32,000 bases of DNA from an archaeon (GCA_024275415.1 JAJRZD010000059.1:1-32000); one strand, 5' to 3'; shown: positions 556 to 22,731, counted from the stretch's first letter. Program-made: numbers and translations. The notes: generated from the sequence alone by a model not told the origin.

Positions 556-1638
556 ATGGTCAAAGTCGCAGTAGTAAAGACCTCACCAAAGACAGTCTAT
601 GAAGATATTGCTCGTGTTTTGGACGCCGCGGAATACCAGAAATTCGTTTCAAAAGATGTGGCGACAACCATCAAGCTCAATCTCTCGTGGAGTAAATTCT
701 ATCCAGCCTGCTCGACGAACCCCTATGTCTTTGATGGGTTACTGCGAAAGATGATCGCAGATGGGTTCAGCAACCGACGCATTCAGGCAGTCGAGAATGA
801 AACTGTTGTGACGAATATATTTGCAGGCACTCATGGGAACAACTGGTACCCTGTCATCAAGAAGCACAAGATCAAGTTCCTTCCTCTCATCCATGCCAAC
901 TATGTGGATGTCAAACTCCCACGAGAAACTCTCGTCCTTGAAGACACGTTTGGCGAGGTCATCGCTCCCAAGGAGATATTCGGCACAAATATCATCCATC
1001 TTCCAACTTTCAAGACTCACGGCCACACCCAGATGACTGGTGCACTAAAGGATTCCTTTGGACTGTATCTTACAAAGAATAGACATCTTGCACATCTCAA
1101 GATCCATGAGGTACTCGTCGACCTACTATTGCTACAGCAAACTATCTCCCATTCCGAATTCGTTCTGACAGATGGAACGGTAATGGGTGACGGCGCAGGT
1201 CCAAGAACAATGATTCCAAAGATTGGAAACCTACTACTGGCTACTAACGATATGGTGGCTGCGGACACGGTCCAAACAAAAATCATGGGCTTGGATCAGA
1301 AGAAGGTACACAAACTACAGATAGCCAAGGAACTCGGACTTGGTGAGTCAAATCTGGACAACATCGAAATAGTAGGGGATTTCGAGTCTGCAGAGGATCT
1401 TCCCAATTTCCACATGAGTCCAGGGAAAAGCCCTGTGATTGCCTGGAATCGTGGGTTCCTGAAGTTCCCCGGAATGGAAACGTTGTTGTTCCGCTCTCCA
1501 CTGATGTGGCTCCCGACACAGCTCTCCGGATTGTACCACGATGGGTTTTGGCTCCCTCTGAAGGGGAAGAAATGGGTGAAGTGGTTCCTTGAGGAAACTG
1601 AATGGGGCGAACTCTGGAAGACCTACAGCAAGAACTAG
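556..1638 (+). CDS. DUF362 family protein without appended ferredoxin domain
   Basis: N-terminal KVAVVKT, IKLNLSW..FYP..STNP, HLPTFKTHGHTQMTGALK..FG, DGT..GDG.GP and D.VA.D match the DUF362 pattern as I recall it. Only one Cys; SD upstream. Confidence 0.75.
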   Translation: MVKVAVVKTSPKTVYEDIARVLDAAEYQKFVSKDVATTIKLNLSWSKFYPACSTNPYVFDGLLRKMIADGFSNRRIQAVENETVVTNIFAGTHGNNWYPVIKKHKIKFLPLIHANYVDVKLPRETLVLEDTFGEVIAPKEIFGTNIIHLPTFKTHGHTQMTGALKDSFGLYLTKNRHLAHLKIHEVLVDLLLLQQTISHSEFVLTDGTVMGDGAGPRTMIPKIGNLLLATNDMVAADTVQTKIMGLDQKKVHKLQIAKELGLGESNLDNIEIVGDFESAEDLPNFHMSPGKSPVIAWNRGFLKFPGMETLLFRSPLMWLPTQLSGLYHDGFWLPLKGKKWVKWFLEETEWGELWKTYSKN

Positions 1639-1647
1639 GTGATGCGA

Positions 1648-2607
1648 ATGAATATCAAAGACTACTTGAGAATCATGCGGCCACACCAGTGGTACAAGAA
1701 CTTCCTAATCTATCTTGCAATACTCTTTGTCGATGTGCGGGAACCACTGCCTGCCATCCTTAACTTTGTCAACTATATTCCCCTCACACTGGGATTTGCA
1801 GCATTTTGTATGGTTTCAAGTGCGGGTTACATTTTCAATGATGTGAAGGACATCGAAGAAGACGCAGCTCACCCAGAAAAGAAAAATCGTCCTTTACCTG
1901 CTGGAACGATCAGTAGAGAAACTGCTCTGGTATTCGGTGCGGTTCTCATAGTCGCAGGGCTGACGCTGTCCTATTTCCTGAATGGGATATTCTTCATCAT
2001 GGTCATCTTGTACATCCTCAACTCACAGGCCTACAATTATTACTTACGCAAGTACGCTGTTGTCGATGTTGTTACTATTGGAACAGGTTTTATCATTAGG
2101 GCCATATCAGGAACCTTTCTGGTCGCAGTGCCATTCACATCTTGGCTCATCCTTGGTGTATTCTTTGTGGCATTGGTGCTCGGCTTTGGAAAACGCAAGA
2201 ATGAACTCATGTTAATGGGAGAAGATGCTGCCCTTCACAAGCCGGTATTCAAGCAATACAACATGGCATTCTTGGATCAGGCGGTGGGGATGTCGGCGAC
2301 TTGGCTTGTGTTTTTCTACACGCTCTACGTCTACCAGAACTTCGGGCAGTATTTCGATACTCAACCTGTCCTACTCACAGTCCCGATTGTCGCCGGTGTG
2401 ACTTTGCGTTACATCTACCTGATATACATCGGACATCCAGTAGGTAGAAAGCCACACCTTGCCATCAAGGACAAGGGAATGGTCGCGGGAATCATCCTTT
2501 TCGGGCTCATCCTTGCCATCACTGTCCTTAGGATTGGCGACCAGACCATCTGGACAATCATCTTCAACTACTTTAGTGGATTGATTCCAGAGCCTCCGGT
2601 CATGTAG
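1648..2607 (+). CDS. UbiA-superfamily prenyltransferase, decaprenyl-phosphate phosphoribosyltransferase (DPPR synthase)-like
   Basis: RPHQWYKN, Asp-rich NDVKDIEED..HPEK.NRP, D...I..GFIIRA..G, SWL......L.LGFGKR.NE; about 8-9 hydrophobic segments. Start placed at ATG 1648 behind the GGTGA SD (1638-1642); the ORF track starts at GTG 1639. Confidence 0.85.
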   Translation: MNIKDYLRIMRPHQWYKNFLIYLAILFVDVREPLPAILNFVNYIPLTLGFAAFCMVSSAGYIFNDVKDIEEDAAHPEKKNRPLPAGTISRETALVFGAVLIVAGLTLSYFLNGIFFIMVILYILNSQAYNYYLRKYAVVDVVTIGTGFIIRAISGTFLVAVPFTSWLILGVFFVALVLGFGKRKNELMLMGEDAALHKPVFKQYNMAFLDQAVGMSATWLVFFYTLYVYQNFGQYFDTQPVLLTVPIVAGVTLRYIYLIYIGHPVGRKPHLAIKDKGMVAGIILFGLILAITVLRIGDQTIWTIIFNYFSGLIPEPPVM

Positions 2608-2622
2608 GAGTGAGGGACATCA

Positions 2623-3297
2623 TTGAATCGCCGGCTTTCTGCATTTGACCTTCACACGCATACACTGCACTCTAAAGACGGGTTGAACGACCCGAAAGGT
2701 CTCTTCAAGTTGATGAAGAAGAAAAATCTTCGGGGACTGGCATTGACCGAGCATTGGAGAGCGTCCACGCTGAAGGTGATCGAGAAGGACGACCGGTTCA
2801 TATTACCCGCATGCGAGTTCAAGACGACAGACTATGGCGAGGTCATCGGGCTCTTCCTATCAGACCACATCGAAAACAGGACATTCGAGGAGGTAGCAGA
2901 TGATGTCCATGCACAGGGAGGACTGGTCGTACTCCCACATCCGTGCGACCCTCTGAGGAAGCACACAGCCATTCGAAAAGGTCTCCCAGAGAACCTAATG
3001 AGAAAGCATGTAGATTTGATTGAGGGAATTAATTCCCGTTGTATCATCAACCTGTTCAATACATGGGCTCAGAAGCTTGCAAAGAGACTCGAAAAACCTG
3101 TCACGGCAGGCAGTGACGGGCACTCGTTCCTAGAAGTTGGGAACGCTCGGACTTGGTTGCAGGACATCAGTTGTCCAGAGGACATCTACACGGCACTCAA
3201 GAAAGGGAGAACCCAGATAACTGGACACTGCTCGATATTCCTTTACCATATCCCGACAATGCTATGGCAAAGATTGAGGAAGATTGCTTATGAATGA
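2623..3297 (+). CDS. PHP-domain metal-dependent phosphoesterase
   Basis: DLHTH..HS.DG, LTEH, CEF, GEVIGLF, HP.D, EGINSR and GSDGH metal-ligand motifs; TTG start with purine-rich GGAGTGAGGG upstream. Confidence 0.85.
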   Translation: MNRRLSAFDLHTHTLHSKDGLNDPKGLFKLMKKKNLRGLALTEHWRASTLKVIEKDDRFILPACEFKTTDYGEVIGLFLSDHIENRTFEEVADDVHAQGGLVVLPHPCDPLRKHTAIRKGLPENLMRKHVDLIEGINSRCIINLFNTWAQKLAKRLEKPVTAGSDGHSFLEVGNARTWLQDISCPEDIYTALKKGRTQITGHCSIFLYHIPTMLWQRLRKIAYE

Positions 3298-4321
3298 AAT
3301 AGATATAGAACAAGGAACCAAAAGTAGGTCTTTCATCAGTTTTGGTAAACTATTTGCGCTCATCATAGTAGGTATGGTCATCTATCTGTTGATGATGTAC
3401 CTTTCCAAATGGGAAGAAGTCGTTGGCATCATTGTAAACATGGAGTGGTACTGGATCATCCCCACCATGATGATGCTAAGTTTCCTGAACTATGTCATTC
3501 GGTATTTCAAGTGGAACTACTACCTAAAACGGATAGATGTCCACTTCTCCCATGCCGATAGCTTCAGCATCTTCCTTGCGGGTTTCACGCTGACGGTCAG
3601 CCCAGGCAAGATTGGCGAAGCAATCAAGGGATACTTCTGCAGGGACGTGGATGGGACACCAGTGGCCAAGACGATTCCTGTCGTAGTTTCAGAACGAGTG
3701 ACTGACCTGCTTGCCATGGTGTTTCTTGCAGCTTTCACGTTTCTATTCATTTTCACAGAGGGCAACCAGCTTCTGTTTGTTGTTGCGTTAGGAGGCGCCG
3801 TGGTCGTGGGCGCGTTCGTCCTGACCAATAAGACATTCTACAACAAGATTCTCAAACGGATGACCTCATTTGGCCCGCTGAAGCAGTTTCAGGACAGTTG
3901 CGATGTGATCGAAGACACTATGGTTCGCACACTCTCGCCCAAACCCATGATGGTCGGCGTGCTGATAAGCATCCCCGGCTGGTTCATGGAATGCATAGAA
4001 CTGTGGCTCCTTCTCTCAGTCCTCTCTGGAGCTGGTCTGCCATCACTCTCTGCTGCATCATTATTCATCCTTATCCAAGCGACCTTTGTCCATGCCAGCG
4101 CCTCTGCAATCGGGGCTGTCGCATTCTTCGCCCCCGGAGGACTTGGAGCATACGAGATATATGCTCCAGCAGTATTGACCTCGCTCGGTTTCATAGTGGC
4201 AGTGGCGACAGCAAGCACTATCTTGATCAGATTTGTCACTCTGTGGTTCAGCGTCGTCGTTGGGTTTGTGGCACTGGGCATTGTCACCTATCGGAACCGA
4301 AAACGGCATTGTGAAACTTGA
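3290..4321 (+). CDS. UPF0104 / lysylphosphatidylglycerol-synthase TM-region protein (putative flippase, AglD2-like)
   Basis: About 8-9 TM segments with R..KW..YL, PGKIGEAIK, SERV.DL and PGGLG.YE motifs; ATG 3290 overlaps the PHP stop by 8 nt. Confidence 0.8.
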   Translation: MNEIDIEQGTKSRSFISFGKLFALIIVGMVIYLLMMYLSKWEEVVGIIVNMEWYWIIPTMMMLSFLNYVIRYFKWNYYLKRIDVHFSHADSFSIFLAGFTLTVSPGKIGEAIKGYFCRDVDGTPVAKTIPVVVSERVTDLLAMVFLAAFTFLFIFTEGNQLLFVVALGGAVVVGAFVLTNKTFYNKILKRMTSFGPLKQFQDSCDVIEDTMVRTLSPKPMMVGVLISIPGWFMECIELWLLLSVLSGAGLPSLSAASLFILIQATFVHASASAIGAVAFFAPGGLGAYEIYAPAVLTSLGFIVAVATASTILIRFVTLWFSVVVGFVALGIVTYRNRKRHCET

Positions 4322-4397: not shown

Positions 4398-7300
4398 TCA
4401 CTCCATCTTGATCCCAAGACTGTTAAGCAAAGCCTCAAGGTCAGCCTTGGACAGAGTCTTTGCTTCCTCAAGGATGACCTCGATCTCGGCAGGTGCCAGT
4501 CCCTTCGCGAGGAGCTTCTGCCTTATCTCCTCAACCTCTTCAGGACGGGACTCGAGTGCAGCTGTTTCAACTGGCTTCTCGGGCTCTCTTTCCCTTGCAA
4601 GCGTGTCAGCCCTGCGGGCTTCCTCCTGAGCAATGACTTCCCTGATAAAGCCGGGTCTCTCGCTTGCCTTCATCTTGGCAAGGTCAGCTCTGAACGCTTC
4701 GATCTCAACAGCACCCAGTCCTGTAATCTCAGCAAGACGATCAAGAAGCTCGTTCACTTCTGGGACATGAGCTTGAATGGTTTCACCCACAACGTCATCC
4801 GGTTCCTTCACAAGTCCTATGGGTTTGAGTTCGTCTTGGATTATGGAAAGGAGCGTCATCTGGCGAGTCGGGGCACGGGCGGGCCTTGGCACCTTTCCTT
4901 TCTTCAGCTCCTTAATCATCCGGTTCAGTGCGCGTATCTGAACAGGGATGCTCCAGACACGCACGTAGTAGTACATCAGCACGGCTCCAATGATGAGTAG
5001 CGAGCCGATACCATAAGTGGCATTCTGGACAAGCACCTGTTCTGGCGTAGGATTGGAATCAATCTGAAGGTCAATTGCCGCTGCTGCATAGTCGCCTCTC
5101 GAGAACTGTATGGTCAGGTCATAGATGCCACCCTGCTCCACGACAAAGTACAGCACATAAGTTCCACCGTATTCGTCTATAGTGCGAATGAAGGATGGAT
5201 AATAGATGACCGCATCTGGATTGTCTGCTGTCACAGTATATGTGATGGTTGCATCGGGAATCGTTCTACCGTGGTCAATATCGAGATATGATATCGTCAG
5301 TTCGATGGTCTGACCAGGTAGTGTTTGAATAAGAGAGGAATCGTGGCTGATAAGGACAAGATCCGTGTCTACCTGTCTCACAGTGACAATGATCTGATAT
5401 GGTGAGATTTGGTATAGAGGTTTGATGAACGAGAGGTCAATTGTATATTCACCTATGTCCAAATCTCCAGGAATCTCAAGGATGTAGCTACCATTCTCCG
5501 CTATATCAAGAACCACCTGCTCAAGCCCAACCCAGTTCGCAATACCTGACGCATCACTGACGAACTCAGATACGATAGTGTTGTTCAGGTTATAATAGAA
5601 TACCAACGAGTCGTTTACAGGGATGGATATATATCGAGGCCCTTGAACGACAACTGGGAATGCATTGAGGTCAAGTCGTACCTTAAGATATGCCGTATCG
5701 TAGTTCTGCAAGATGAAGCGTACCTCTACATCATACCTCTTCGGTGTAGTCACATTCAAGTTCACGGCAACCGAGTACGTGCCATTTCCATAATCAGTGA
5801 CTTCTCCTGATCCGCCATCCCAAGAAGCCCGAACATCTGCCCCTGAGAGGGGAACATCGTGAAGTGAGTCGTTCAGTGAGAAGACATATACTACTGTATC
5901 ACCAAAGTAGCCGGCCTTGGAGCTAAGGTCAACCTCTACTGTTGTTGGAATTGGTTGGATGTTCACAAGGAACCGCACAATCTTTGTTTCATAGTACTCC
6001 TTTGAAAATGTAATCTTGAGGTAGATTGATTGTGCTGGCAACGAGGAGGTGTCGATTGTTGCTACGTAAGAGCCATTAGGCAACTCAGTTAACGAACCTG
6101 TTATATTTGCGAGGGCATATGTGACATTTGCACCTCTAATCAGACCACCGCCGAGATTGTCAGTCAGCGTCAATAAAAGATCTAGGTCTTCACCGTAATA
6201 GCTAAAAATGCTCGTAGCCAAATTGGGAAGATTCAATGAAATGGGAATAGGGTCGACTATAACCACAACAACCAAGTCTAGGAAATCATAGTTATTGTGG
6301 AATGCAGACACCTGCAACTCGTATTGTCCTATAGCAAAGCCTACAGTGTCAATATTGCTGACATAATAACCGGGGGTTCCATTCGTGACCATGCTGTAAA
6401 TTGTATTATTCCACTCTGCGGTAATGACAGCGTCGGTTATCGGTTGGTTCCTGTTTGTATCGTTGAGATAGACCCAAATCTGTCGGGTCGTATTTGTAAT
6501 GATGTTTATGAACGTCTGCTCTGGGATCACGTAGCCGATAGCCTTGGAAATGATGAAGGTCATCGTTGTCTGCTTTGGTTGATAGAACTCCTTTGTGATA
6601 GTAATTTGCGGCTGAGACACTCCGAAGTCATTGTCGGTCGTGTCAACAACCGTAACATATGTCCAATTGAGTAGGTCGCTGAACACATAGATACTCCCAT
6701 TCCAATATAGTGTGGCATTCATCCCTGGTATGTAAGTCCCATACAACGGGTCTTTGACATCTATCTTGATTGTCAACTGGTCGCCCCAATCCGCATAGAC
6801 TGTTGTGCTGGCAAGGATGATCTCAGCCGATGCGTCCCCAGGCGTTACACTGACGGTTATGTTGGCAATCACATAGAAGGCCAGTTCTGCTTGGATAGTG
6901 AACACGTATTCCTGTGCTAGTAGTCCAGTTGTGTTTATTGTAATCCTATAAGCTCCAGAACCCAGGTCTTGGATTATTGCATCTGTCGAATATAGAGTTA
7001 CCCAGTCAGTGGTTATCGCAGCTCCTGAGATAGGAGAGCCATCCTGAGTGGTCGTAAAGGTCAGATTGACTAGGATAGGTTGCCCAACAGGTTGCGATGC
7101 TACGGAGGGAACCTCTGCGATAAGAATTGTCGGGATGAGGATAATCTTCGCTGGTATCTGGCTTGCCGAACGTGCACTGTAGAATGGAGACCCAGATATT
7201 GACACGCTGACATTGAAATATATGGTGCCGGTGTTACCGAACTGCGCTGTCGGGACTATGATTTCGTATAACCCCGAACCAAGGTCAGTGATGTAGTGAG

Positions 7301-10300: not shown

Positions 10301-12161
10301 GATAGTTGATTGTCAATGCAGATGTGTGCGTGACCGAAAAGGGTCTTTTGAAAAATCCTGTCGACCTCCAGTCAGTATTTGTCCCTACATCATTGCTGAA
10401 TGCTTGAACCATCCAAGACCCAGCAGAAGCATTGGCTCCATCAAAAGTCAGCCATGGAGTAGTCGCATATCCTGAACCATCAGTTGTTGCGTTCACACTA
10501 TACCATTTTTGGCCTGTAGGGGTGTAAACAGTGAAATTGACCACAGAATTGGCGTAAGCAGCGCCTAGATTGGCACGGATCTGTGTGGAATTCCCAGCCC
10601 TAAGGTCAATTGTCCTGCTCCATACAAGTGCATTCGGATCATAAAGCTCGATGTCACTAATCATGTTTGGTGACTTGCTCAATATCCGCCAGTAACCGTA
10701 ACGACCTGCCTCAGTGGCAACATCATACGTAGACACATTTAGGAACCCATCACCTGGGTTTCCTCCATTCCATCCGGTGGTCAGATTCGTTGATGGGGCC
10801 AAAGGACGAGCTACAAAGTAGACATCCCTGTTGGCCGGGATGGTCATGTTGAAGAAGTATCGATTCGCGTAGCCTTGAGGAATATCTGCATAGAAATATG
10901 TGGAATAAGACGCATCAGTGCCGTTTTGTATCGAAAACCGCTCACCGAATGCTGTAGGATTAATCTCCTTCACAGTTCCAAAATCCAACCGCCGAGCGAA
11001 CATATTGATGTTAACATCAAATTCGACTATGATGGTTCGATTCGGCACCGGATTGATAGGAGTTGGACTCCAAGTGAAATTCATTCTCACAGGATCAGTA
11101 ATCCACGGAGTAGTTGGAGTTTCAACGATGAATCCAGAACCATAGCCCGTGTTATCTGTAACAGGATTCCCGTTCATCTCGAGGTTGAGGCTAGTGGGTG
11201 TGGCACGAGTCTTCAGATACAACTCGATGTTATCAAATTTCGCAGCTGGAAGAATGTTAGGCGCATAGCCATAGGTTCCTTTGCACCAGAGACCCACTTC
11301 AAGTGTGACACTTTGATCAGTAGGCAGGTTGAATGTGGATGTGGGAATAGAAACCAAACCTGAGTCGTACCATGTTTCCTCAGCGCCAATTTCTGTAAAC
11401 GACTTCTCCCAAGTCCAAGTGCTTTCGACTGTTAGATAGATCGAGAATGCTCCGGTCATCCCATAGTGTGTGTCATCTCTCGTATCGGCCCAATAGTCAG
11501 TTCTAAACCCGGCCCAAACAACTTGTCCGCGGGGAGCTGTCATTGTCTGTTGCGCCCAAGCTCGATCACCTCCAGAGTAGTAAAATGGTGAGCTTGCACT
11601 ATTAGAGTCAATGAAGAAATCAAAGCTACCATCTCCCGGGCCATGTCCGCTGGAGTTGTAGAGAGAAGTTTCTGATGAATACGACCCTCCATCTGTCGTT
11701 CCTCGGGTCCAACCAGTATCAGACCCTGTCAGGTCGGGGTTCTGTACCCAAGTCCGGTTCTCGGTAATCTCGGTCAAATCAGCACGGACTTGGTAGGCTT
11801 CCCAGTTGTTGCCAGTGGGGATATCAACTGTGACATTTGTTGTCACATTTGTCGGAAGGTAGGTCATCTGCATTGTGTTTTGGAGGGTCGTTGAGTTGCC
11901 GAATTCAGATGCGATGAGTTCCGTCGAGTCACCTTGCCACTCGACCCATCCCTGTTCAGTCAAGACAAACTTGTGAAGTGTTTCACCGGGAGCCACCTCA
12001 ATTGTTTCTCCATTGCCAATATCGACTAAAGATGAACCACCAGCACTATCATCTGAAACTCCCACTGTTCCAAGGTCAGGACCAAGAGCAGGACCCGCGA
12101 AGGTAGATAGTAGCATCAATAATCCTACGAGGATAACTGGAATCAGGCTTGTCTTCTTCAT
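4398..12161 (-). CDS. Giant (2587 aa) single-pass cell-surface glycoprotein A with cytoplasmic tail
   Basis: Signal-like N-terminus MKKTSLIPVILVGLLMLLSTFA; Thr/Tyr/Ile-rich beta repeats with recurring G.G.Y; about 60 N-x-S/T sequons by manual count; TM YGIGSLLIIGAVLMYYY (~4963-5016); charged ~187-aa tail. Confidence 0.9.
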   Translation of the reverse strand: MKKTSLIPVILVGLLMLLSTFAGPALGPDLGTVGVSDDSAGGSSLVDIGNGETIEVAPGETLHKFVLTEQGWVEWQGDSTELIASEFGNSTTLQNTMQMTYLPTNVTTNVTVDIPTGNNWEAYQVRADLTEITENRTWVQNPDLTGSDTGWTRGTTDGGSYSSETSLYNSSGHGPGDGSFDFFIDSNSASSPFYYSGGDRAWAQQTMTAPRGQVVWAGFRTDYWADTRDDTHYGMTGAFSIYLTVESTWTWEKSFTEIGAEETWYDSGLVSIPTSTFNLPTDQSVTLEVGLWCKGTYGYAPNILPAAKFDNIELYLKTRATPTSLNLEMNGNPVTDNTGYGSGFIVETPTTPWITDPVRMNFTWSPTPINPVPNRTIIVEFDVNINMFARRLDFGTVKEINPTAFGERFSIQNGTDASYSTYFYADIPQGYANRYFFNMTIPANRDVYFVARPLAPSTNLTTGWNGGNPGDGFLNVSTYDVATEAGRYGYWRILSKSPNMISDIELYDPNALVWSRTIDLRAGNSTQIRANLGAAYANSVVNFTVYTPTGQKWYSVNATTDGSGYATTPWLTFDGANASAGSWMVQAFSNDVGTNTDWRSTGFFKRPFSVTHTSALTINYPDDAVGTWKTNVTYGDLLLIIITANDTDSQVVVPGGTLSMNWVLGSDTFDDSGNGQYTKVLDTSLLPGKGQYTIDLTWTANNFDTANAVLTVNVNYNAELTSPDYPGIQGPIGNDQTFIVEFKNVNGTGILGASIQTNWTNSYTVTEIGSGQYQIVLTTSGIVFGSYPVLISASASFVEPRSMLMFVEIREVYNTVSYSANQLSIPVGESASFTITWYDTDNDQPITGMASAITSNWTSFHTTGEQNYTVVETSPGVYNVTIFTEIDDPLTTPSNLYNVVFNVTRKDYQNHTFSIGVEIRRHNTQFVLDSPIEQTPIGQDIVVLVFYQDTDLLQGITNGSGFVDFDITSPDVTSLAFISSVSALGDGHYNITISSSQWSSIGWKNLTITASWTGGQTYYSQVLDTRVRLLGTETDLYLEIAPTATNYLDNFTFTLVYYDVVNATRISNSTNNVLISVIPITTGHSVTQADFVIAEIDTSGTYSFELNASLFGAARTFKFQIDFLWRKAINPLYENQTITVTLVVLGIPTYVDYTPIGSTPYGELADFSFSYVNSLTSEKISNSSNLYISIVGGGVPFTLLYDSVTMVFTMRIDTSALGVGTSSLTLNITWIGEPFYEEAFQDFSVTVTYRSTQLTHLSFAAPQWGQNVTIEFVYTDLVSGTSSGMTGILSFNLSLAAYTITSLGGGHYLAEINTTYFASAGLFYINATIIYDGSNFASDAIEIFELTIIERITQLGYETPDPTPYLNNVSFIVTYLDDSTSTPISGGSVVVYCSNSSSSLLINTNYWVSDLGTGEYLIEIDSTALGSVGVFVLQVNISRSGSPFYALASANVNSRVTQRTTQILITQTPGEVPFLELVVFKFRYTDFLTGISISITKAEITLTHGAGMTVIVSTDYTLTESGGIYTISFNSTILNPSALVTGHPIQMTIDASAGVPYYAPRSISTSVTTTERPTQILFPLVADTPYYENITINFEYIDFLTDSGIQGAIVTVSFLNMTSPTHYITDLGSGLYEIIVPTAQFGNTGTIYFNVSVSISGSPFYSARSASQIPAKIILIPTILIAEVPSVASQPVGQPILVNLTFTTTQDGSPISGAAITTDWVTLYSTDAIIQDLGSGAYRITINTTGLLAQEYVFTIQAELAFYVIANITVSVTPGDASAEIILASTTVYADWGDQLTIKIDVKDPLYGTYIPGMNATLYWNGSIYVFSDLLNWTYVTVVDTTDNDFGVSQPQITITKEFYQPKQTTMTFIISKAIGYVIPEQTFINIITNTTRQIWVYLNDTNRNQPITDAVITAEWNNTIYSMVTNGTPGYYVSNIDTVGFAIGQYELQVSAFHNNYDFLDLVVVVIVDPIPISLNLPNLATSIFSYYGEDLDLLLTLTDNLGGGLIRGANVTYALANITGSLTELPNGSYVATIDTSSLPAQSIYLKITFSKEYYETKIVRFLVNIQPIPTTVEVDLSSKAGYFGDTVVYVFSLNDSLHDVPLSGADVRASWDGGSGEVTDYGNGTYSVAVNLNVTTPKRYDVEVRFILQNYDTAYLKVRLDLNAFPVVVQGPRYISIPVNDSLVFYYNLNNTIVSEFVSDASGIANWVGLEQVVLDIAENGSYILEIPGDLDIGEYTIDLSFIKPLYQISPYQIIVTVRQVDTDLVLISHDSSLIQTLPGQTIELTISYLDIDHGRTIPDATITYTVTADNPDAVIYYPSFIRTIDEYGGTYVLYFVVEQGGIYDLTIQFSRGDYAAAAIDLQIDSNPTPEQVLVQNATYGIGSLLIIGAVLMYYYVRVWSIPVQIRALNRMIKELKKGKVPRPARAPTRQMTLLSIIQDELKPIGLVKEPDDVVGETIQAHVPEVNELLDRLAEITGLGAVEIEAFRADLAKMKASERPGFIREVIAQEEARRADTLAREREPEKPVETAALESRPEEVEEIRQKLLAKGLAPAEIEVILEEAKTLSKADLEALLNSLGIKME
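5065..10325 (-). repeat. About 17 degenerate ~100-aa beta-sandwich (Ig-like) protein repeats in protein A
   Basis: Approximate consensus T.L...(Y/W)G....V.Y.D....I.GA.....G.G.Y.I.I.T..L..G.Y...I; 17 instances of the G.G.Y.I.I.T strand counted. Boundaries approximate; not a DNA-level repeat. Confidence 0.65.
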
Positions 12162-15100
12162 TCTTTCATTCCTCCGAGTTGGTCGAGAAGTGCTTGTATC
12201 TCGGCCTTTGACAGGTGTCGAGCTTGTTCCATCATCAATTCAGCTTCGCTTTCCTCGATTCCCATCTTCAGTAGTTGCGCTTTCAGGTCTGCAAGCTCTT
12301 CTTCGCTCAGTCGGGCTTCTGCCTCTTCGGCTGCCCTAGCTGGAGCCTCGGCAGCATCCGCAATCTCCTTGGCACGTCGGGCTCGTTCCTGCCTAATGAC
12401 CTCATTGAGGAAACCACCACGTTCGCTTGGCTTCATCTTATCCAAGTCGCGTCGAAGCACAGCTGTGTCAGCCTCGGTCAACCCAACAAGTGTCGCAAGC
12501 TCTTCTAGTAGCCTCTCAGTATCAAGAGTTTCTACTTCCACGGAATACTCTGAGATGTCTTCGGGTGGTTTTACGATACCTATCGGTTCCAGTTCCTCAT
12601 TGATCCATTCCAGCATCATCTTTCTCCGTGAACGCACAGGCTTGGGAGATGGTATGCGACCCTTGGAGAGGGTCGAAATCATTGAACGGATCCACCTCAA
12701 CATCTTTGGAATTGAGAGTACCCTGAACCAGAGAGCGGCAAAGGCGAATAGTGCAAGAATGCCGATGGATCCCCATCTGAAAGCATTCTGAGCTGCAATC
12801 TGCTCTTCGGTAGCCACGGCATGTATGATGACCTTTGCAACTGAGTCCTCATGGTTGCTCGAAGACAGGGTAACGACGATTTCATAACGTCCAATATCAT
12901 TCAACCTGAAATAGAAGAAGTATGTGCCATTCGTGCCCTGATGCTCTTCATCTACTAACCTCTCAGCGTTCGTTCCTTCTGTACTATTGGTCGCATCATA
13001 GATTGGGATGTTATGGTCAAGATCCCAATAAGTCAAGTTTAGAATCACGAGTCCACCTGCAAATGCTGAAGGAGAGGGACTTTCGAAGAAAACAGTCGTA
13101 CGAATCGGTCGTATGGTAAGAGTCACTTCCATGACACGACGTTCATAATTCTCCTTGGAAAGAACAATTCTCAAAGAGTAATTGCCGATGGGTAAGGTCG
13201 TTTCTCCAGTAATATCAGGGCCAAAGAAGTACGTGCCGTTCCCTGCGTCTGATAGGGCTATAGTTCCAAACTCCCAGAATACGGTATTTATCGCATCTGT
13301 GACCCACTGATCATTGAGAGAGTCATAATAGCTGAATGACTGCGAGTAGTCATCACCCCACGGAATGACTGGATGTTCATTTCCTATGATCTCTGTAGGA
13401 ATTGGATTTACCAACAGCCGCACAATCACATTGGAGAACTTGTATCCATCTTTCTCGAAGCTTACTGTGATCTGATATGGTACTGAGCTCGAAACAAGTA
13501 GAGATGTATCAATTGTCATCGAGTATGTTCCGTTGTCATAGTCAGTCAGATTACCACCAAACGCTGAGAAGAGGAAGGTAGCATCTGCACCAGGTACTCC
13601 TTCATCAAAGCCAACGTCCCAGAAGTTGAACCTAAATGTGGCGTTCTGTCCGTAATACACATCAATCTGAGTATCAGTCAGGATGATGATTTCTGTGGGG
13701 GCATCGTCAATCTCGATGGTGAACTGGATGGATGAAGGAGCGTATCCTTCACGGGAGCTGGTGATTGTCAGAATCCATGTTTTTATTTCCAGACCGAGTG
13801 TGGAGATATTTGCCGAATAGTAGCCGTTGCCAATCTCAGTCAGATTGCCGATGATGTCGCCAAGACTGTAGGTTAACGTGGCACCTGTGATGGGCTGAGA
13901 AAGGTCTGTGTTGTTGAGGTAGACTGTTACCGTGAAGTTGTTATTTGCTACAACCTCAATATATGTCACAACGTTTGCTGCCACCATCTCGGTTTCAATC
14001 ACATTGACTTCCAGTGTGACTTGCGTATTGATATCACGGTAGTTTGTAGAACTAGCTTGGATGAGTATTTTATGACTGCCAACGATGACATCATTGATTG
14101 TGAACTGACCGACATAGCGATTCTCGGTTGATGACCAAATCAAAGAACCTGAACCACCAATCCATGAGAAGGTCACCACTCCGTTCGGGATATCAGTCCC
14201 GTTTGATTGGATCTCGTAATCCACATAGACTGCGACTGTATCACCATTGACCGTGGAGAACGGGGTCAGGTCAGCTGCAATCTTCGATGCAATCTTCTCA
14301 ATCCGTAATTGACTATCGAACTGCCGCACTTCATGGTTTACTTTCTCGAACTGGATTGTTAGTGAATAGTCCCCAGCATCGTAAATCTTGGAATTGAAGG
14401 TAGTCTGGTAGATCCCGTTTGCGACGTATGTGAACACGTAGGTATCACTCAAGATAGTTACATTTGTGACACCCCCTGCAATTGGGTTACCATTGAGTGC
14501 GTTGGTGATGTTCAACTGAATCGTGATTAAATCACCCCACAAAGGAGTTTCAGGTACTATGCTTACCTCAATGTTTACAGGGATAGCAGCCAGAAGAATC
14601 TCCACATCAATTGATTTGTTCACATGGATAAACTTCGATGCGTTTATCATGAACGGGTATTTCTGAGCATCGAGGCCTGACGTGTTTATGAGCAACTGAT
14701 AGATACCATTACCAAGGGGAGTGATTGTCATTATGGTGCTATAGGTCGTATTCCAGTCAGAAGTCACATTCGCACCATCGATTCCGATTCCAGTGTCGGC
14801 CTCTGTGAATGTCACATTCACCTCGACTATCTCGCCGAGGTAGTTGGTCGAGCCGCCACTTGTCTGAAGCGTGAGGACAGTTGCGACCGGGGTGAGAATG
14901 ACCGAATATGAGATGGCGGTCTTGTTTTGGTAGTATGGCGAACCAAACCATGTGATGTTCGCCCTGAAGAAGTAACGACCCATCTTCACAAATCCGGACG
15001 AGTTTACACGGATCGTGTAAGTCCCATCATTGTTATCGAACCACCAAAATTGGATGCTCGTTTCGTTCAAACATTCTACAGTGATCGATGCACCAACAAT

Positions 15101-19957: not shown

Positions 19958-20023
19958 TTTATTGGGACCTCCATCTAGTCTATCATCAGCTATGTTCTCT
20001 GCAAAAGCAGAGGAAGTCTTACC

Positions 20024-20034
20024 TATAAATATAC
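20024..20034. promoter_or_regulatory. TATA-box-like element in the divergent giant-protein/cupin intergenic region
   Basis: TATAAATATAC on + (GTATATTTATA on -), about 70 nt upstream of the ATG at 19957; a small IR CTCTGC-AAAA-GCAGAG (19997-20012) lies between them. Confidence 0.4.
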
Positions 20035-20132
20035 ACTGTCACAAACAGGTCAAAAAATCGAAATATATCCCGAATTTTCGAAATAGCGGTTTTCAGAACG
20101 GTACAATAATATCTGACGTACATATAGTGTGC

Positions 20133-20492
20133 ATGGTTAAAGTGAGAGTCCATAAAATAGTCAATGCAGAAATTGCAAGCAGAGCGGGGTATCAAGCTCG
20201 ATATATCGCAGATGTGCGTCTACAAAGTCCAATCGCAACTGTGGGAGTGATACAAGTCGAAATCAAACGGGGAAGGAAGACAAGTCCGCATACACATGAA
20301 CATCTTGAAGAACTGTTCATACCGCTTGGTAGGACGAAGATGGGAGTTGGCGAGTCAATCATAGAGTTGGAGCGTGGGGATGTGGTCATTGCGGAACCGG
20401 GCGAGAAGCACTGGTTCGAAACGTATCCGGACGAGGATGTGATGGTAATCGCCCTCAAACTACCCAACCTAAAGGACGACAAAATCCAATAG
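20133..20492 (+). CDS. Cupin-domain protein (119 aa)
   Basis: Cupin motifs PHTHEHLEELF and GDVVIAEPGEKHWF. Start moved from 19962 to ATG 20133 because the upstream extension covers the AT-rich divergent promoter region. Confidence 0.85.
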   Translation: MVKVRVHKIVNAEIASRAGYQARYIADVRLQSPIATVGVIQVEIKRGRKTSPHTHEHLEELFIPLGRTKMGVGESIIELERGDVVIAEPGEKHWFETYPDEDVMVIALKLPNLKDDKIQ

Positions 20493-20496
20493 GTCA

Positions 20497-20916
20497 CTAG
20501 AGTGGCTCGTCGTCATCCTCATCAAAAGATAGGTCAATCGAGCCAGGTCGCTTCTTTGACACGGTGGGTACTGCACGGAATATTGCCCTTGTGAGTAGTT
20601 TCCATTCCTGATATCTGTGGTGTCGTCCAAGCACCCCTGCAAGGGTGATCACAATGAAGACAACAGAGCCAAAAAGAACCATTTCCCAGATAGAGGAAAA
20701 GTGAGCTGAGGCGGTCATTAAAGCTACAACCGCTACAGCGGACACGATGATAGTGTTGAGATAGCAGTCACAGGTTATATTGAGTTCTGGTGGTCCCAAC
20801 TGGAAATCCTCTGGATCCGAACCCGGTGCTCGGTTCAGGTAATAGTTGAAGACTGCTGCAAGAAGCGTCCCAATTATAATAAGAGCCCCAGTAATGATAT
20901 CCATGTTATTGCACAT
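20497..20916 (-). CDS. Small hypothetical membrane protein (3 TM) with acidic C-terminus
   Basis: Three hydrophobic segments, a basic stretch, then DEDDDEPL. Starts 6 nt after the PIN gene stop; alternative start ATG 20904. Confidence 0.7.
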   Translation of the reverse strand: MCNNMDIITGALIIIGTLLAAVFNYYLNRAPGSDPEDFQLGPPELNITCDCYLNTIIVSAVAVVALMTASAHFSSIWEMVLFGSVVFIVITLAGVLGRHHRYQEWKLLTRAIFRAVPTVSKKRPGSIDLSFDEDDDEPL

Positions 20917-20922
20917 CCAGAT

Positions 20923-22731
20923 TCAATGTTCAGGTTCTGTGATCTTAAGATAGCTGAATCCATACTCTCCTTCGTATGATATCTCAGACGACTTACTCGG
21001 AGTGATTATACACACGACCGAATATGTCTTTCGAACCGTGTCATCTGCCTCAACAAGACTGAACTCTCCTTCAGTCAACGCGACCTTGTGGCCGGACTTT
21101 AACGTCTTTAACAACGGGTGCTGGGAGATATCGATCCCGACTCTGATGTGAAGCTGTTCGTTCCTAACAACAAGCATCTCCATGTCATTGACCTTCTCGA
21201 TCGTGAGGACATCCATCCAACCTTTGAACTCATCAGGGAGTTTGGACAACGGTACAGGCTTCTTGTAGGTCTTGATATTGACGGGAGATAGGTTTCCTTG
21301 CACTTCGTTGAGGATAGGTGTGATACTGTTGGTAGACCAGCCTTTCTTGACAAAGAACTTCAGTGCGTGCTCGGCGTATTTCTCAAGGGCTGCCTTGAGC
21401 TTGTCGTGTGCCGAGGATGATACTTTGTACAGCATCAGGAAAGACGAGAGTGCTGATTCTTCCTTGCCATAGGCGACACCAATCTTGTACGCTGTTTCGG
21501 CTAGCTGCCATGCGTTCTCGTAGTCATTGAACAGTACTGAATACTTGGCGATGTCATTCAGCATCGCGATTGTGACCTCTGGATACTCCAACTTGTTCTT
21601 AGTCAGTGAAAAGCCGCCCATGAACTTTCTGAGGATTTGCATCGTGACATAGAGACCCTCTGATGTTTCCATCATGTCCTCAAGTCCCAATCGCTTCAAC
21701 AGACTGTCATAGAGGCTGTAGTAATAGTCGATCTCCTCATAGTCCTCACGGATAAGTGCGATGACGATACGGACGAAGAACACGGATGCTTTCAGGGAGT
21801 CGTCTTTCACCCCTGTGAACATGAGCAGTCTGAATGCCTCATCACTAATTGCAAGGGCATCCTCAACACCTTCCCGTGTGCCACGATAAAGGTGACATAT
21901 CATATCCAGATAGTAAAGGAATAGCGTCAGGTCAGCAGCATGACCAACAAGCTTCTCATGGGTTTCGTTGTTCTCGGTGAGGGTGGACACGATGAGCAGC
22001 CGTTCGATCTCCGTCTGGACAGCCTCGATTTCTCGTGATAGCGAATCATATTTGCCCAGCTTGAAATCCTCGAACATCGTCGGGATGCCAGCCTTGATGT
22101 CCTCAAGAAAATCAAGAACGAAAAGTGGTTGTCCATGGGTCAAGTCACTGTCAAGTTGGCCTGCGGGTCTCTTTACTTCCCGCAAGACACGCATGGCATG
22201 CTCTTCGATAATCCGTATCCTTGTTACCGGGTCGTATGCCTCTCTACGAGCGATGCTGTATCGTACTTCCTCACCGTAGATACGTTCACGTAATGGAGCG
22301 AGCTTCTTCTTCATTGATTCATCATCAATGGACTCCATCAGTTCTAGGAGGAATGCAGAGCCAACGATGCCAACAATCTCCAGATTGAGGTCTTGAATAG
22401 TGTTCAAGAGTTTCAGGTCGCTGGTGACAATCTTGGAGTTCTTATTCCTCATCGCAGCTAGAACGAGTGACATGTCATTGGGTTGGGGAAGCGAGGACTC
22501 GGGACGGTTGAAGCTGCTAATCAGTTCCTTGATGTCCTTCTTGAGAGTTTCATCGATCTCGACGACCTGCTCTACCTCTCGACGGAGGTACCACCGGAGC
22601 TCTTGAAATACCTGACGTGTTACCCAAAGTTCTATCCCCAACTGATTCGCAGCTTCCTTCACTAGGAAGACATCCTTTGGACGCTCGCTGAATCCGGAAA
22701 TAAAGAAGTTTGCATCTAGATAGGCTCGCAT
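20923..22731 (-). CDS. PIN-domain protein fused to a long alpha-helical (TPR-like) region and a beta-rich C-terminus
   Basis: PIN acidic tetrad: LD6AN, VFQE44L, ND86MSLV, VTSD105. Followed by ~360 aa of helical-looking sequence and ~100 aa beta-rich end. Confidence 0.75.
   Translation of the reverse strand: MRAYLDANFFISGFSERPKDVFLVKEAANQLGIELWVTRQVFQELRWYLRREVEQVVEIDETLKKDIKELISSFNRPESSLPQPNDMSLVLAAMRNKNSKIVTSDLKLLNTIQDLNLEIVGIVGSAFLLELMESIDDESMKKKLAPLRERIYGEEVRYSIARREAYDPVTRIRIIEEHAMRVLREVKRPAGQLDSDLTHGQPLFVLDFLEDIKAGIPTMFEDFKLGKYDSLSREIEAVQTEIERLLIVSTLTENNETHEKLVGHAADLTLFLYYLDMICHLYRGTREGVEDALAISDEAFRLLMFTGVKDDSLKASVFFVRIVIALIREDYEEIDYYYSLYDSLLKRLGLEDMMETSEGLYVTMQILRKFMGGFSLTKNKLEYPEVTIAMLNDIAKYSVLFNDYENAWQLAETAYKIGVAYGKEESALSSFLMLYKVSSSAHDKLKAALEKYAEHALKFFVKKGWSTNSITPILNEVQGNLSPVNIKTYKKPVPLSKLPDEFKGWMDVLTIEKVNDMEMLVVRNEQLHIRVGIDISQHPLLKTLKSGHKVALTEGEFSLVEADDTVRKTYSVVCIITPSKSSEISYEGEYGFSYLKITEPEH

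Follow-up and report, generated by a model that had tools for sequence, protein, structure and literature searches.

A conserved, internally duplicated helical tail at the inner end of paired giant surface proteins in Thorarchaeota

The surface proteins of archaea usually end at the membrane. Giant surface proteins and adhesins with immunoglobulin (Ig)-like repeats and transmembrane-anchored surface-layer (S-layer) glycoproteins are known to finish a few basic residues past the anchor, or to rely on secretion-system anchors or on PGF-CTERM/archaeosortase. Here we have analyzed a stretch of 32,000 nucleotides (nt) of DNA from an uncultured Thorarchaeota (Asgard) archaeon (GCA_024275415.1, JAJRZD010000059.1:1-32000; the window in what follows), in which two adjacent genes, P0001 and P0002, encode paralogous giant surface proteins. 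These resemble the giant surface proteins and adhesins with Ig-like repeats and the transmembrane-anchored archaeal S-layer glycoproteins in their signal peptide, beta-sandwich stalk, heavy N-glycosylation and C-terminal membrane anchor. Unlike S-layer glycoproteins, the giants carry a conserved and, by prediction, folded domain of 184 or 185 residues (up to about 400 in relatives) past the transmembrane helix. This domain, the tail, is the subject of the present study.

The other systems that invite comparison are the integrins (alpha/beta) and the classical cadherins. Like the giants, these eukaryotic receptors cross the membrane once in the type-I orientation, have a large, glycosylated ectodomain made of repeats and two different subunits that are encoded together, and show a membrane-proximal cytoplasmic segment that is conserved more tightly than the ectodomain. 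The cytoplasmic tails of integrins and cadherins are characterized by NPxY, GFFKR and catenin-binding motifs. None of these is present in the tail of the giants, and there is no relation in sequence or fold. Moreover, the integrin tail is of the short linear-motif kind, whereas the tail described here is predicted to be a folded helical domain of 184 residues with an internal duplication. The likeness is thus to be taken as an analogy only, and for the giants it is solely the genetic pairing that is seen.

Conservation and internal duplication of the tail

The tails constitute the final 184 (P0001) and 185 (P0002) residues of two open reading frames (ORFs) on the minus strand, the products of which are 35% identical overall. 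A first-pass annotation of the window had placed them at 4398-4962 and 12158-12726. These ranges were right, the excess over the tail proper (Table 1) consisting of the stop codon and three to four residues of the transmembrane helix. The plan of the tail is as follows: behind the transmembrane helix come an amphipathic basic helix, a second helix, a specialised module 1, a short acidic and disordered linker, and module 2. We hold the statements on anatomy and evolution made below with high confidence. With respect to function, the best overall explanation is probably that the duplicated inner tail serves as a docking and/or pairing platform.

The near-gapless alignment of the two tails that had been reported was confirmed (39% of the positions identical, a single gap over 185 columns, E 2.4e-33), as compared to 35% identity and 102 gapped columns for the two ectodomains. 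The further claim, that conservation is higher in the tail than in the ectodomain, held in one of two respects. Between the paralogues of the window the difference is marginal: 36% of the 184-residue ectodomain windows match or exceed the tail in identity, and the tail looks better conserved by eye mainly because it is gapless. Among orthologues, represented by a MAFFT alignment of 53 full-length P0001-type proteins (2457-2600 residues), the difference is clear, with a mean pairwise identity of 0.635 for the tail versus 0.51 for the ectodomain, and the best 184-residue ectodomain window (0.579) falls below the tail. More specifically, the identity rises to 0.77 for P0001 residues 2461-2520 and is 0.35 for the linker; the best-conserved stretch of the whole of P0001 is module 1. 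The comparison of orthologous sequences thus indicates that the tail is under stronger constraint than the ectodomain.

The columns that do not vary were determined in 74 diverse homologues, with identities down to 30%. P3, R7, P22, R30, M94, S97, F102, V106, Q109 and E110 (tail numbering) are invariant, and L69, L73, E98, E105, I107, R113 and A115 nearly so. Many of these positions make up the motif of module 1, M..SE...F..EVI.QE..R.A (M94, S97, E98, F102, E105, V106, I107, Q109, E110, R113, A115), and both tails of the window hold all invariant columns. E98, F102, E105, Q109 and R113 share one face of helix c, the last helix of module 1, and this conserved face may well constitute an interaction surface.

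The first-pass annotation had also proposed that each tail contains two copies of one module. When a shallow profile was used, the proposed alignment of the modules was without significance. Deeper profiles aligned module 1 (62-121) with module 2 (135-184) at an hhalign P of 4.7e-5 and a score of 25, as compared to 10 +/- 2 for column-shuffled profiles (maximum 19; 0 of 150 shuffles reached the observed score), with the direct alignment sitting in a register that was offset by one helix. The tails of another Asgard family (f12) contain a unit of 46 residues (helix, P.L[SG], helix, [PS], helix), of which two to three copies follow a homologous juxtamembrane segment. The first and the later copies of f12 align in phase (P 1.8e-9), as do the first copy and module 1 of the Thorarchaeota (P 2.5e-5). 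The later copies match module 1 (P 1.3e-4) as well as module 2 (P 2.2e-6; score 28.8 versus 8.9 +/- 1.9 for shuffled profiles, 0 of 120). When the first modules and the later modules were merged into two profiles, the hhalign alignment spanned the full three-helix unit (50 columns with one gap, P 2.8e-5) in exactly the register claimed earlier, the shifted alternative having a P of 0.97. The register offset by one helix, which had been the first reading of the repeat, was therefore dropped, since the sister-lineage tails and the merged profiles favour the in-phase one. The in-phase copies of f12 and the merged-profile alignment imply that the tail holds two old copies of one three-helix module. 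Judged from these profiles, module 2 is an old duplicate of module 1, and module 1 has specialised since. No self-similarity at the level of single helices was found inside a module (P = 1).

The distant tails, which were found in f12 and one genome of another family, f3 (L015-L024, from genomes G096, G043, G085, G073 and G035), are part of giant frames of at most 4075 residues. They show a SIPW.VR+MRKM juxtamembrane segment and two to three in-phase modules of 46 residues, in some cases with a long Pro-rich linker.

Topology, predicted structure and distribution

A hydropathy scan revealed that both giants begin with a signal-peptide-like hydrophobic segment and have one more hydrophobic helix near the C-terminus. 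In P0001 the 30 residues after this transmembrane helix include 9 Lys/Arg, whereas the 15 residues before it include none. The ectodomains hold 65 and 67 NxS/T sequons, and the tails 0. The basic residues after the helix and the confinement of the sequons to the ectodomain therefore indicate a signal peptide, an ectodomain that is outside and a tail that is inside, in line with the cytoplasmic location assigned to the tail at first. The juxtamembrane helix (4-17) is indeed basic, as had been claimed, and strongly amphipathic (hydrophobic moment, muH, 0.64). The tails as a whole are rich in E, A, L, R and K and have a net charge of -6 and -9 in the two giants of the window.

Structure models were made using AlphaFold2 with family alignments, for the whole tail and for residues 1-122 separately. 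The whole-tail model is all-helical, with a predicted local distance difference test score (pLDDT) of 80.2 and a predicted template-modelling score (pTM) of 0.38; for residues 1-122 alone these values are 88.9 and 0.50. Helices are predicted at 4-17, 30-45, 66-77, 81-92, 96-121, 137-149, 154-164 and 169-178, with the segment 122-134 being of low confidence. The models support the initial description of the tail as a cytoplasmic domain that is folded, all-helical and repeated and contains a charged linker.

The tail was described in the first-pass annotation as having no recognisable family and no catalytic motif, and our searches agree on both counts. Scans of the tails and of the whole proteins against Pfam and NCBIfam gave nothing above the cut-offs and detected no catalytic family, and the PDB sequence and fold searches did not assign a family either. 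The commonest weak Pfam match was RecX_HTH1, found for 12 of 27 tails with a best E of 0.0023. The RecX repeats (PF21982/PF02631/PF21981) are like the tail in that they form tandem three-helix units of about 45-50 residues, and the profiles weakly resemble each other over the 'L..KG....I..hh' helix-turn-helix (HTH) part. In addition, the source databases automatically name some of the four-copy tails 'RecX/OraA' or 'HTH antitoxin' (JGI names and a precomputed PF21982, on two relatives). One could therefore read the tail as a nucleic-acid-binding array of helix-turn-helix units. We consider this very improbable: all matches stay under the curated Pfam cut-off of 26 bits (15 bits for P0001), the PDB profile search retrieved no RecX chain even with E values of up to 10 allowed, and the units of the tail are acidic, tethered to the membrane and separated by flexible spacers. 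RecX chains are also absent from the top 50 of the VIA wide lists, which leaves room for matches of lower rank.

The best match of the tail and of module 1 in the PDB profile search was Thf1/Psb29 (PDB 5MJO), at a marginal E of 0.011 over 55 columns of its C-terminal helices only. The alignment covers helices a-b-c, including ..KELVEQERKRRAQ against ..KEVIKQERARRA. ThylakoidFormat is absent among the 25 most frequent weak Pfam families of the 27 tails and 5MJO is not among the top fold matches; the match is probably a chance one between charged helices. Module 2 retrieved designed helical repeats and the N-terminus of uS15 (E 0.0023). The designed repeats represent an idealised helix-loop-helix pattern and, together with the composition of the tail, would suit a charged, helix-prone spacer that has no specific function and is similar between proteins by composition only. 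This we find barely credible, as the tail surpasses every part of the ectodomain in conservation among the orthologues and has invariant polar residues, which contradicts a spacer. Moreover, its N-terminal part is modelled with confidence (pLDDT 88.9), and column-shuffled and reversed controls stay below the observed profile scores.

No likeness to SAM, UBA, death-fold or FliG domains, a comparison with which had been suggested, emerged from the searches: neither tail matched such a Pfam family at E up to 1, and none of them is among the 25 Pfam families most matched by the 27 tails (E up to 5). A chain of HR23A (with HIV-1 Vpr), which we take to be a UBA-containing protein, occurred once among the fold matches with a Z of 4.0, which is within noise. 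A feature search of the ESM Atlas gave no usable match. MIM1-like and WH2-like linear motifs were judged by eye and dropped, the key residues not being conserved in the family alignment. No description of the tail family was found in the full-text literature searched, relative to which the family is new.

An exhaustive HMMER search with the tail (1.84 billion representatives) yielded 98 proteins of up to 5543 residues, with the match at the C-terminus in each. The same plan is present in every homologue that was recovered: a transmembrane helix, the basic helix, the second helix, module 1, an acidic linker and either one or four terminal modules. The four-module tails are like beads on a string, with acidic spacers of roughly 10 residues. 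An inventory of 213 collected proteins showed the N-domain plus one terminal module in 166 and the N-domain plus four in 28, the rest being mostly fragments cut at contig ends. The window tails have one terminal module each (E 1.4e-16 and 3.1e-17) and all the marks of the family, namely the C-terminal position after the transmembrane helix, the motif of the N-domain, and the acidic linker with its terminal module. The stalk repeats of P0001 (about 670-2380) are common to all members, the heads of which differ (e.g. Laminin_G_3/DUF2341), and the tail was found only behind this same Ig-like stalk. A profile search with the terminal module in 5.8 billion proteins (94-2000 residues) returned only this transmembrane-anchored C-terminal architecture. 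In the own genome the module matches three giant paralogues only, three weak extra matches being unrelated enzymes, and across 26 good genomes from the own family all matches with E < 1e-7 are located in giant frames or in fragments at contig ends. Fusion of the module to other types of protein, which had been put forward as something to look for, was thus found neither in the profile search nor in these 26 genomes.

The tail is present in 72 of the 76 genomes sampled from the own family and in the single genome sampled from a sister family, each genome having 1-14 matches. In f12 (9 of 19) and f3 (1 of 4) the versions are weak and distant, and the tail was not found in the 26 other Asgard families sampled. 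The named tail records are almost all from Thorarchaeota, including SMTZ1-45 and AB_25, so the Asgard host implied by the first reading was borne out. The tail is a lineage-specific domain family of the giant stalk proteins of Thorarchaeota.

Tandem pairs and their surroundings

The stop codon of P0002 and the start codon of P0001 overlap by 4 nt, and to judge from their arrangement the genes are translationally coupled, co-transcribed paralogues. Of the four tandem pairs that were read, three overlap by 4 nt and all have a tail on both partners; the tandem order with the 4-nt overlap recurs in L006/L007 and in L025. There are larger pairs in the family (4810+3991, more than 4007+4257, and 5007+3157 residues), again with both partners tailed, and a tandem pair of two tailed giants was the arrangement throughout the neighbourhoods examined. 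In the pairs at L025:1-19976 and L026:1-20774 a single terminal module on the upstream giant is combined with four on the downstream one. The valency is therefore asymmetric (1+4), unlike the 1+1 of the window.

Because both proteins have a tail in the four pairs read, a pairing of tail with tail is as open a reading as the coupling to the cytoskeleton, trafficking or signalling that the first-pass annotation had proposed. The tails would then bind each other, A (P0001) with B (P0002) or laterally, without a separate cytoplasmic partner, and the co-translated giants would assemble into a heterodimeric stalk, or into a coat on the cell surface that is joined beneath the membrane. The two tailed partners and the overlap of three of the four pairs speak in favour of such pairing. 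The A-type and B-type tails moreover form separate subtypes that are about 40% identical, with the A type about 63% identical among orthologues, the constant protein length of 2457-2600 residues suggests a structural assembly, and nearly every genome of the family has retained the two genes. Nevertheless, helix c lacks the hydrophobic heptad of a coiled coil (the a/d positions are F, E, Q, A and D), simple pairing has no need of a 1+4 asymmetry of the terminal modules, and two tails that are both net acidic (-6 and -9) are not charge-complementary. As the sole explanation of the tail, pairing appears doubtful to us.

The features of the window are collected in Table 1. At lower coordinates in the window, and convergent to the giant pair, lies a DUF362-UbiA-PHP-LPG_synthase_TM operon that is syntenic with the pair in the three other contigs examined (L005, L006 and L007). 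The synteny of the pair with this UbiA/PHP/flippase-like operon would agree with a tail that acts in biogenesis or sorting, that is, one that aids insertion, retention or sorting, possibly by contacting Sec/SRP/YidC or the machinery of N-glycosylation, and plays no further part after the protein has reached its site. The position of the tail right after the sole C-terminal transmembrane helix, its strongly basic juxtamembrane helix and the fact that it always travels with the same stalk fit in as well. However, a stop-transfer signal needs but a few basic residues, whereas here 184 residues are conserved with a peak at 60-120 residues from the membrane, and terminal modules that vary from 1 to 4 within pairs fit binding valency better than insertion. 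We therefore regard a role confined to biogenesis as quite improbable.

Table 1. Coordinates of the giant pair, the parts of its tails and other features in the window
Feature	Coordinates	Strand	Description
P0001	4398..12161	-	Giant type-I surface glycoprotein, 2587 aa; downstream gene of the pair; signal peptide, ectodomain with 65 sequons, one transmembrane helix, tail
P0001 transmembrane helix	4953..5012	-	Residues 2384-2403; hydropathy scan
P0001 tail proper	4401..4952	-	Sub-coordinates confirmed by translation
P0001 tail 1-29	4866..4952	-	SIP..R start, amphipathic basic juxtamembrane helix (4-17), KGK.P.P loop
P0001 tail 30-61	4770..4865	-	Second helix (30-45, invariant R30) and loop with conserved G.xK
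P0001 module 1, tail 62-121	4590..4769	-	Helices a 66-77, b 81-92, c 96-121
P0001 linker, tail 122-134	4551..4589	-	Acidic, poorly conserved, pLDDT about 50
P0001 module 2, tail 135-184	4401..4550	-	Terminal three-helix unit: 137-149, 154-164, 169-178
P0002	12158..19957	-	Paralogous giant, 2599 aa; upstream gene; 67 sequons
P0002 transmembrane helix	12716..12775	-	Residues 2395-2414
P0002 tail proper	12161..12715	-	Sub-coordinates confirmed by translation
P0002 tail 1-61	12533..12715	-	Juxtamembrane basic helix and second helix
P0002 module 1	12353..12532	-	MKPSERGGFLNEVIRQERARRA core
P0002 acidic linker	12311..12352	-	
P0002 module 2	12161..12310	-	Terminal three-helix unit
Operon	556..4321	+	DUF362-UbiA-PHP-LPG_synthase_TM; convergent to the giant pair
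Genes adjoining the pair	20497..22731 and 19962..20492	- and +	Cupin, small membrane protein, 602-aa PIN-domain protein
Antisense ORF	12013..12339	+	108 aa, over P0002 tail region
Antisense ORF	12369..12791	+	140 aa, over P0002 tail region

The antisense ORFs over the tail region of P0002 were taken for by-products of a GAR/CTY-rich coding strand. The genes for the cupin, the small membrane protein and the PIN-domain protein that adjoin the pair are also found near the pair in L006, in a rearranged order. In L005 the PHP and LPG_synthase parts of the operon are fused into one product of 568 residues. On this contig of 916 kb the slot of the upstream partner (L005:5533-10004) is occupied by three consecutive shorter calls of 915, 283 and 297 residues, which run 4 nt into the downstream giant, as if frameshifts or assembly errors had broken a partner gene.

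The third giant paralogue of the own genome (G000:C1:63018-70961, corresponding to L014:11019-18962 on the minus strand) comprises 2647 residues and has a tail of about 240 residues. Only about 100 bases separate it from the end of its contig, and the expected upstream partner was probably cut off. An ORF of 254 residues is located on the opposite strand just past its 3' end, and a Rad51-family gene, likewise of 254 residues, holds the matching position beside the giant P0041 (L027). Elsewhere in the family, four tail-bearing giants follow each other in a row with a spacing of about 7.7 kb (G134:C22:6012-30111), which looks like two tandem pairs side by side. A tail match in another genome (G027:C24:7035-7565) is part of a frame of 4618 residues with one in-frame TAG, for which a sequencing error, a pseudogene or recoding could account.

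Possible function and meaning of the tail

The reading that we prefer, tentatively and as a possibility still short of a probable one, is that the tail docks a separate cytoplasmic partner. As deduced from the arrangement of conserved and variable parts, the basic amphipathic helix would lie on the inner face of the membrane, and module 1 would provide a fixed binding site near the membrane via its conserved and largely polar helix face. The terminal module or modules, carried on a leash, would serve as extra protein-binding units the valency of which can be tuned. Jointly, these elements would link the pair of surface stalks with a conserved partner in the cytoplasm, or the two stalks with one another.

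Several results weigh against the docking of a partner. No such partner emerged from the family, fold, fusion or own-family genome searches, and since the module is not fused to other types of protein there is no guilt by association. The fold searches with the whole-tail and N-domain models (Foldseek PDB, VIA wide and ESM Atlas) gave generic three-helix matches only (VIA Z 4-7.1 over 45-61 residues, the best being 7.1 over 60; Foldseek E >=0.4; Atlas TM <=0.35), and at a pTM of 0.38 and 0.50 the models give no firm prediction of how the helices pack. Likewise, no conserved cytosolic gene was found beside the pairs examined, their neighbours being the lipid/glycan-type operon, a tRNA synthetase, the cupin and the PIN protein.

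A more far-reaching form of the docking proposal, and in our view an unlikely one, is that the tail would form the inward-facing half of a transmembrane coupling device specific to Asgard archaea, by which a heterodimeric stalk signals surface events inward. Such a device would combine a docking module close to the membrane with one to four adaptor modules on a leash, and its targets in the eukaryote-like cell interior would be actin, the endosomal sorting complex required for transport (ESCRT), or the small GTPase/longin systems. If true, it would be an independent archaeal counterpart of the outside-in linkage of the integrin type.

An inner domain that evolves more slowly than the exterior of the same protein is a signature of a conserved intracellular interaction. 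Throughout one Asgard lineage the hallmark giants have retained a folded domain inside the cell that evolves slower than their outside parts, and to this the present analysis adds the limits of the domain, its invariant motif and internal duplication, the valency of its modules (1 versus 4) and the phyletic range. The Thorarchaeota are uncultured relatives of the eukaryotic ancestor. For such organisms a small and defined helical domain (about 45-120 residues) therefore offers a practical handle on the Asgard cell cortex.

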